From assembly GCF_003991155.1 (NCBI RefSeq), contig NZ_CP031293.1: 64,000 nt of DNA. One strand, 5' to 3'. Every line of letters begins with the position of its first letter. Position 1 is the first letter of the stretch. Below, piece after piece: positions 8,828 through 9,015 of this stretch. Made by a program: the position numbers and the translations under genes. A model generated the notes under the pieces. The model searched no databases. It was not told where the DNA came from and worked only from the letters and a program-made list of their open reading frames with translations. Source of the stretch: Escherichia coli (GTDB lineage: Bacteria > Pseudomonadota > Gammaproteobacteria > Enterobacterales > Enterobacteriaceae).

Positions 8828-8856
8828 ATCATCCTCCACAAAATGATAAAGGCTTT

Positions 8857-8875
8857 AATAATGATTATCATTTAT
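8857..8875. promoter_or_regulatory. Fur box in the divergent entC / fepB promoter region
   Basis: aataatgattatcatttat resembles the Fur consensus GATAATGATAATCATTATC; lies between divergent iron-regulated operons. Confidence 0.6.
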
Positions 8876-9015
8876 ATTTTCGGTCGCTAACCTAAAAGCA
8901 AACGCGCACTATGTCAACTCTTGAGGTAACGCAATCTGCAACTCGGGGTTGCATCTGTTTGTGGTTACAATGAAAATGAGAAGCATTAACTCTATTAATA
9001 ACAGGAAGCTAATTT

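Follow-up and report, generated by a model that had tools for sequence, protein, structure and literature searches.

The enterobactin (ent/fep) cluster of E. coli raises the question of whether the Fur-box-like sequences between its divergently transcribed genes are genuine Fur operators, and whether these operators correspond to those footprinted in K-12. The window, by which is meant the whole stretch of 64,000 nucleotides that was analysed, contains this cluster. Its region around entC and fepB matches the chromosome of E. coli 2016C-3878 (NZ_CP029747.1) at 100% identity, and exceeds 97% identity in 5417 of the 5426 complete E. coli genomes. Gene positions were taken from the RefSeq annotation of the identical strain 2016C-3878, the window position being the locus coordinate minus 6501. 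The annotation agrees with a previous sequence-only reading of this DNA in presenting entC/fepB, entS/fepD and fes/fepA as divergent pairs, and the three regions named by that reading are therefore the three divergent spacers of the cluster. The flanking genes, all from the RefSeq annotation, are as follows:

7652-8827, minus strand, entC
9016-9972, plus strand, fepB
9976-11226, minus strand, entS
11337-12341, plus strand, fepD
19586-20788, minus strand, fes
21031-23271, plus strand, fepA

The spacers measure 188 bp (entC-fepB), 110 bp (entS-fepD) and 242 bp (fes-fepA), together 540 bp, and their G+C content is 31-42%. One Fur-box-like stretch had been read in each of them, and all three are present where they had been placed:

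8857-8875, Fur-box-like stretch in the entC/fepB spacer, AATAATGATTATCATTTAT
11300-11324, Fur-box-like stretch in the entS/fepD spacer, GATAACGATAATTAATTTCATTATC
20841-20874, Fur-box-like stretch in the fes/fepA spacer, GATAATATTATTGATAACTATTTGCATTTGCAAT

As a crude measure, matches to the classical Fur 19-mer, GATAATGATAATCATTATC, were counted across the 64 kb. At least 15 of the 19 positions agree at 8857, 8972, 11300 and 11306 only, all of which lie in the ent spacers. The fes/fepA stretch, with 13/19, is at background and is equalled at many coding positions. Since the naive count leaves fes/fepA at this level, a position weight matrix (PWM) in the "M9" frame of Chen was needed. The matrix was built from 16 K-12 Fur sites, all outside the ent cluster (fhuA, gpmA, fiu, sufA, ydiE, cirA, mntH, exbB, bfd, ryhB, sodA, fecI, fecA, fhuF, efeU and nfeF), and was symmetrised (22 bits). 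Each training site comprises the 19 bp around a centre listed in Table 4 of Chen et al. 2007 (PMC2189734), with coordinates converted via the annotated start of each gene; most are backed by footprint, gel-shift or expression evidence, and weak predicted Salmonella sites (PMC3212961) were left out. The matrix is not fully independent of the cluster, because the site centres came from Chen's model, whose 24 sites include four from ent. The highest-scoring sites of the window are:

8854-8872, rank 1, 25.7 bits, entC-fepB spacer
11303-11321, rank 2, 18.2 bits, entS-fepD spacer
20850-20868, rank 3, 17.6 bits, fes-fepA spacer
11297-11315, rank 4, 16.5 bits, entS-fepD spacer
8860-8878, rank 5, 15.0 bits, entC-fepB spacer
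8969-8987, rank 6, 12.6 bits, entC-fepB spacer

The six top scores of the whole 64 kb, from 25.7 down to 12.6 bits, thus all fall within the three divergent spacers. In 100 dinucleotide-preserving shuffles of the whole window, the mean number of sites of at least 12 bits was 0.77, as compared to the six observed. When each spacer was shuffled by itself, its observed maximum was reached in 0 of 2000 shuffles for entC-fepB, in 0.2% for entS-fepD and in 0.05% for fes-fepA. The sequence-only reading had proposed a matrix scan and had held that scores at background level would speak against it; with the six top scores in the ent spacers and the shuffles at 0.77, that objection therefore fails, the ent scores lying far above background.

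All of the arrays contain overlapping pairs of sites in 6-bp phase (8854/8860, plus 8842; 8969/8975; 11297/11303; 20838/20850), the offsets between sites of one array being 6 or 12 bp. Such offsets have been described for Fur clusters (Chen 2007, PMC2189734), and are the signature of multi-dimer Fur binding. With the classical Fur box and the cluster model of Chen et al. 2007, the window operators share overlapping 19-bp sites, 6-bp phasing, AT-rich dyad symmetry and a position over promoters. However, none is a perfect classical box, the best agreeing at 16 of 19 positions.

DNase I footprints have been made with purified Fur on K-12 entC, fepB, fepD-entS and fepA-fes DNA (PMC2189734). Their coordinates, taken from Table 3 of Chen et al. 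2007 (PMC2189734), refer to NC_000913.2 and were converted to NC_000913.3 by adding 777, as verified by gene-start distances and the current annotation. On the window, the entC, fepD-entS and fepA-fes footprints map with zero mismatches to 8833-8881, 11287-11355 and 20833-20880, respectively, and each of these encloses one of the three ranges of the sequence-only reading. The fepB footprint maps to 8966-8994, where its last (3') bases diverge. Combined with the matrix sites and with predictions of the exact promoter hexamers in the window strain, these footprints yield the following predicted features:

8833-8881, entC (entCEBAH) Fur operator, identical (49/49) to the K-12 footprint
8889-8917, minus strand, predicted entC promoter (-35 TTGACA 8917-8912, 17-nt spacer, -10 TAGGTT 8894-8889)
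8949-8977, plus strand, predicted fepB promoter (-35 TTGCAT 8949-8954, 17-nt spacer, -10 GAAAAT 8972-8977)
8969-8993, fepB Fur operator (8969-8987, 12.6 bits; overlapping second site 8975-8993, 8.9 bits)
11287-11355, common entS / fepDGC Fur operator, equivalent of the K-12 footprint
20822-20851, plus strand, candidate fepA promoter from a promoter scan (TTGATT/TATTAT; consensus match only)
20833-20880, common fes-ybdZ-entF / fepA-entD Fur operator (zero-mismatch mapping of the K-12 footprint)
20845-20873, minus strand, predicted fes promoter (-35 TTGCAA 20873-20868, 17-nt spacer, -10 TAATAT 20850-20845)
20851-20879, plus strand, candidate fepA promoter (TTGATA/TAGCGT; consensus match only)

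The entC operator comprises two overlapping cores, 8854-8872 (25.7 bits) and 8860-8878 (15.0 bits), and a weaker site at 8842-8860 (9.3 bits). The -35 hexamer of the predicted entC promoter, TTGACA, is perfect, and both of its hexamer blocks are conserved in 15 genera. Transcription would start near 8881, which would place the Fur core at approximately +3 to +27. Promoter-like ATGATA/TATCAT matches also occur inside the entC Fur box, and these are probably look-alikes created by the Fur motif, the conserved TTGACA/TAGGTT pair being the better candidate. On the other side of the spacer, the fepB operator includes a block, TGAAAATGAGAAGCATT, that is conserved across genera; of its two sites, the first has a modest score (12.6 bits) and the second a weak one (8.9 bits). 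The predicted -10 of fepB, GAAAAT, lies inside the Fur site. The hexamer TACAAT at 8966-8971 is more consensus-like, but was rejected as the fepB -10 because it is not conserved, whereas both blocks of the GAAAAT/TTGCAT pair are conserved across genera. The fepB start would then lie near 8984, at a predicted distance of 103 bp from that of entC. The 1990 work of Brickman reportedly gives a distance in agreement with this.

The entC and fepB operators are separate and lie about 115 bp apart, and two non-overlapping Fur boxes have been described for the fepB-entC region (Pakarian and Pawelek 2016, PMC5020551). The entC-fepB spacer therefore holds two operators, and the cluster has four rather than three. 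All three regions reported by the sequence-only reading are real, but it did not list the fepB box at 8969-8987, which falls within the very span, 8840-9015, that it had marked. On the plus strand, positions 8931-8953, located between the promoters of entC and fepB, contain a terminator-like hairpin with a T-run after it; it was rejected as a terminator, since conservation within the spacer is lowest here and the hairpin is probably due to chance.

The whole 110-bp entS-fepD spacer is identical in the window, K-12 and Sakai, and the control region of fepD-ybdA (entS) in K-12 is reportedly the subject of Christoffersen et al. 2001. Its core sites are 11297-11315 (16.5 bits) and 11303-11321 (18.2 bits), and the array follows a conserved TAACAT block (11280-11285) and precedes the fepD start codon. 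Chen et al. 2007 (PMC2189734) remark that the promoter precedes the fepD-entS Fur cluster, in agreement with this position past the TAACAT block. The Escherichia box carries two substitutions, reading TAATTTCATT as opposed to TACTATCATT elsewhere. These lower its score from the 24.0 bits of most other genera to 18.2 bits, the lowest value among 79 loci.

In the fes-fepA spacer, the 48-bp sequence footprinted in K-12 is identical, with one Fur array over both divergent promoters, and the three substitutions that distinguish the 242-bp spacer from that of K-12 (20820, 20964 and 20973) are all outside the operator. The K-12 fepA-fes control region is said to have been treated by Hunt, Pettis and McIntosh in 1994 and by Escolar et al. 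in 1998. Its core sites in the window are 20850-20868 (17.6 bits) and 20838-20856 (9.0 bits). The 17.6-bit site occupies the spacer of the predicted fes promoter, whose start would lie near 20838, touching both hexamers, and belongs to a nearly invariant block; both candidate fepA promoters likewise overlap the Fur array. A GC-rich hairpin, GCGCGCCGTGGGAAGCGCG, is found at 20884-20902, directly downstream of the conserved fepA/fes promoter-operator block, at a position that coincides with, or is close to, the 5' end of the fepA leader. Many genera, although not all, retain its arms, without covariation.

Within E. coli, the three operators that match their footprints throughout are identical in 92-98% of genomes (entC, 100% identity in 5293 of 5412; fepD-entS, 5069 of 5412; fepA-fes, 4951 of 5389). 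For a wider comparison, a scan with EntS in one genome per species yielded 80 loci, from Escherichia, Salmonella, Citrobacter, Enterobacter, Klebsiella, Raoultella, Kosakonia, Kluyvera and other genera, in which the genes were then located by tblastn. A strong PWM site is present in every enterobacterial locus that has both genes of the pair. Sites of at least 16.6 bits occur between entC and fepB in 79 of 79 such loci, and of at least 18.2 bits between entS and fepD, again in 79 of 79; for fes-fepA, the figure is at least 17.6 bits in 45 of 45. The entC-fepB site is centred about 35 bp (29-40) upstream of entC in nearly all loci, the three exceptions being two enlarged spacers and one locus topped by the box on the fepB side. 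The centre of the fes-fepA site is 65-80 bp, and mostly 69-72 bp, away from the start of fes, and the site forms part of a nearly invariant stretch of some 45 bp. The remaining 1.47 Mb of locus sequence contains only 35 sites of at least 12 bits. When 16 genera are aligned, the longest and most conserved blocks of each spacer are the Fur cores, and at each operator these are flanked or overlapped by conserved promoter hexamers, the start sites being predicted.

The entC-fepB spacer is 188 bp in the window and 374 bp in K-12, whose bidirectional promoter-operator region is reportedly that of Brickman, Ozenberger and McIntosh 1990. The difference arises at a single point:

between 8988 and 8989, empty insertion site, at which K-12 has 186 bp (alignment with the long allele)

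The entC operator, the first fepB site and both predicted promoters are identical in the two strains, and K-12, like the window, has two non-overlapping Fur boxes in this region. Conversely, K-12 has the 186-bp BoxC-containing insertion, a longer predicted leader and a stronger second fepB site. The inserted segment starts 1 bp past the first fepB site and carries an inverted BoxC/PIT/TMECO pair. This is the pair TMECO 7+8 of MG1655, at 624579-624676 (Holder et al. 2015, PMC4666352, Table 1), of which the window has only the empty site, and the presence or absence of these intrastrand-triplex repeats from strain to strain has already been reported in general terms (Holder et al. 2015, PMC4666352). 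The BoxC/TMECO motif, CCCTCNCCC N3-6 GGGNGAGGG N3 GGGNGAGGG, is absent from 8828-9015 and occurs in the long allele only. While the core of the insertion belongs to a repeat family found at a median of six places per genome, its ends, about 34 nt on the left and 10 nt on the right, are not common to other BoxC copies.

The long allele is carried by 2721 of 5426 E. coli genomes and the short allele by at least 2343, as counted with a junction-spanning probe. The spacer is 188 bp in E. albertii and 183 bp in Salmonella, and most other genera likewise have the short form (median 187 bp); the window thus has the ancestral form, and K-12 the derived one. A deletion as the origin of the short spacer, suspected from the unshared outer stretch of about 34 nt, was rejected in view of the spacers of about 187 bp in E. 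albertii, Salmonella, Citrobacter, Enterobacter and the majority of the remaining genera. The left end of the insertion supplies ATTGAT, which raises the second overlapping fepB site to 18.9 bits in K-12, as compared to 8.9 bits in the window. The insertion would lie at about +5 of the predicted fepB mRNA, and the leader would accordingly measure about 32 nt in the window and 218 nt in K-12, an approximately sevenfold extension that includes a GC-rich palindrome. The K-12 fepB operator of the textbooks, together with its long leader, thus represents a derived state, brought about by the insertion of a BoxC repeat.

Fur binding and Fur-dependent expression have been characterized in other strains, and are expected to apply to the window by analogy. 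In MG1655, ChIP-exo peaks were found at fepA, fes, fepD, entS, fepB and entC, and eight further strains have equivalent peaks (Gao et al. 2023, PMC10164565); all three ent regions have peaks in MG1655, W3110, Sakai, 042 and CFT073 (PMC10164565). All ent/fep genes belong to the 36-gene core Fur regulon of nine E. coli strains, in which derepression upon deletion of fur was reported for each of these transcription units (PMC10164565). Deletion of fur in MG1655 changed RNA-seq levels by 6.6 (fepA), 6.0 (entC), 5.4 (fes), 2.7 (entS), 2.6 (fepB) and 2.5 (fepD) log2 units (PMC10164565). Three of these strains, Sakai, 042 and CFT073, have the 188-bp entC-fepB spacer and a fepB box identical to that of the window, and in these short-allele strains fepB was derepressed by 3.5-4.2 log2 units (PMC10164565). 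In 042 and CFT073, fepB has a ChIP-exo peak of its own, 41-53 bp upstream of the gene (PMC10164565), a position equivalent to 8963-8975 of the window, while Sakai has a single peak for this spacer, on the entC side, that was assigned to both genes (PMC10164565). Fur control of fepB thus persists in short-allele strains. The fepB peak of MG1655, P16 (NC_000913.3 624582-624607), is found inside TMECO motif 7 and not on a Fur box, and may be due to a stop of the exonuclease related to DNA structure, and not to Fur binding.

Together, these observations bear on the possibility that the matches are simply a by-product of AT-rich promoter DNA, with its -10-like and UP-like sequences, and are not Fur sites at all. 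The 31-42% G+C of the spacers, the promoter-like hexamers inside the Fur boxes themselves and the mere 13/19 of fes/fepA against the classical consensus would all be in keeping with such an origin. Yet composition-matched local shuffles almost never attain the observed scores, the footprinted DNA has the same sequences, conservation of the spacers across genera is highest in the Fur cores, and ChIP-exo peaks coincide with the sites (PMC10164565). A by-product of base composition is thus extremely improbable, and for practical purposes this reading is already refuted. It is just as hard to credit that the sites mainly serve another regulator, whether a Zur-like repressor of the Fur family or a nucleoid protein such as H-NS: nucleoid proteins generally bind AT-rich DNA, and nothing specific points to one here, whereas the PWM was derived from Fur sites, the footprints were obtained with purified Fur (PMC2189734), and the genes respond to the deletion of fur (PMC10164565).

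A narrower doubt concerns the fepB box of the short allele, which might be too weak to act alone, such that Fur spreads from, or cooperates with, the entC operator, or that repression is looser than in K-12. The low scores of its two sites, 12.6 and 8.9 bits, as compared to 18.9 bits in K-12, raise this question, as does the single entC-side peak of Sakai, itself a short-allele strain. However, CFT073 and 042 possess the identical box and show a distinct fepB peak and a derepression of 4.2 log2, and most genera retain the box, which overlaps the predicted -10. A fepB box unable to act alone therefore appears unlikely, although less remote than the two readings above.

It thus appears almost certain, from the sequence match, the statistical excess over shuffled DNA, the identity to footprinted K-12 DNA and the deep conservation, all of which were observed directly, that the sequences constitute the Fur operators of the ent/fep/fes enterobactin cluster of E. 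coli. Occlusion of promoters by Fe2+-Fur, relieved by the loss of iron, is the standard mechanism. Under iron sufficiency, Fe2+-Fur dimers would occupy the overlapping sites offset by 6 bp, and the resulting arrays, which overlap or lie just past the -10/+1 regions of the divergent promoters, would prevent transcription from being initiated. Under iron scarcity, Fur would depart and six transcription units would be derepressed, namely entCEBAH, fepB, entS, fepDGC, fes-ybdZ-entF and fepA-entD. One operator is common to entS and fepD and one to fes and fepA, while entC and fepB each have their own.

The ent/fep Fur operators are already known in detail, having been footprinted in K-12, and are textbook biology, and the sequence-only reading was fair in presenting them as expected. 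It had also taken the iron regulation of the cluster to be intact. This holds for the cis elements, which are present and unaltered; the statement extends to the cis level only, as the fur gene is outside the window. The iron-responsive cis-switch of the enterobactin system is thus present and unaltered in this strain, and the value of this result lies in annotation alone.

The short spacer raises a further, tentative possibility, namely that the K-12 fepB operator is built in part from the end of a BoxC insertion carried by about half of E. coli, and that the ancestral allele could differ in the repression of fepB by Fur or in the translation or stability of fepB mRNA. Should this be true, a common, naturally occurring regulatory polymorphism would affect the uptake of ferric enterobactin. 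Results obtained for the K-12 fepB operator, with its two Fur dimers and 31-bp footprint, need not carry over exactly to the ancestral spacer, which is held by about half of E. coli and by other enterobacteria.

Elsewhere in the window, hokE adjoins entD (about 24060-24220) without the copy of IS186 that is present there in K-12. The final 14 kb or so (about 50100-64000) consists of lambdoid prophage tail genes, some of them truncated, and cusRS/cusCFBA, nfrAB, ompT and envY are located between the two. Outside the ent cluster, the Fur PWM reaches at most 9.5 bits, the seventh highest score of the window, at 55832-55850 in one of these tail genes, the tail-tip gene gpJ; this was judged to be a chance match.
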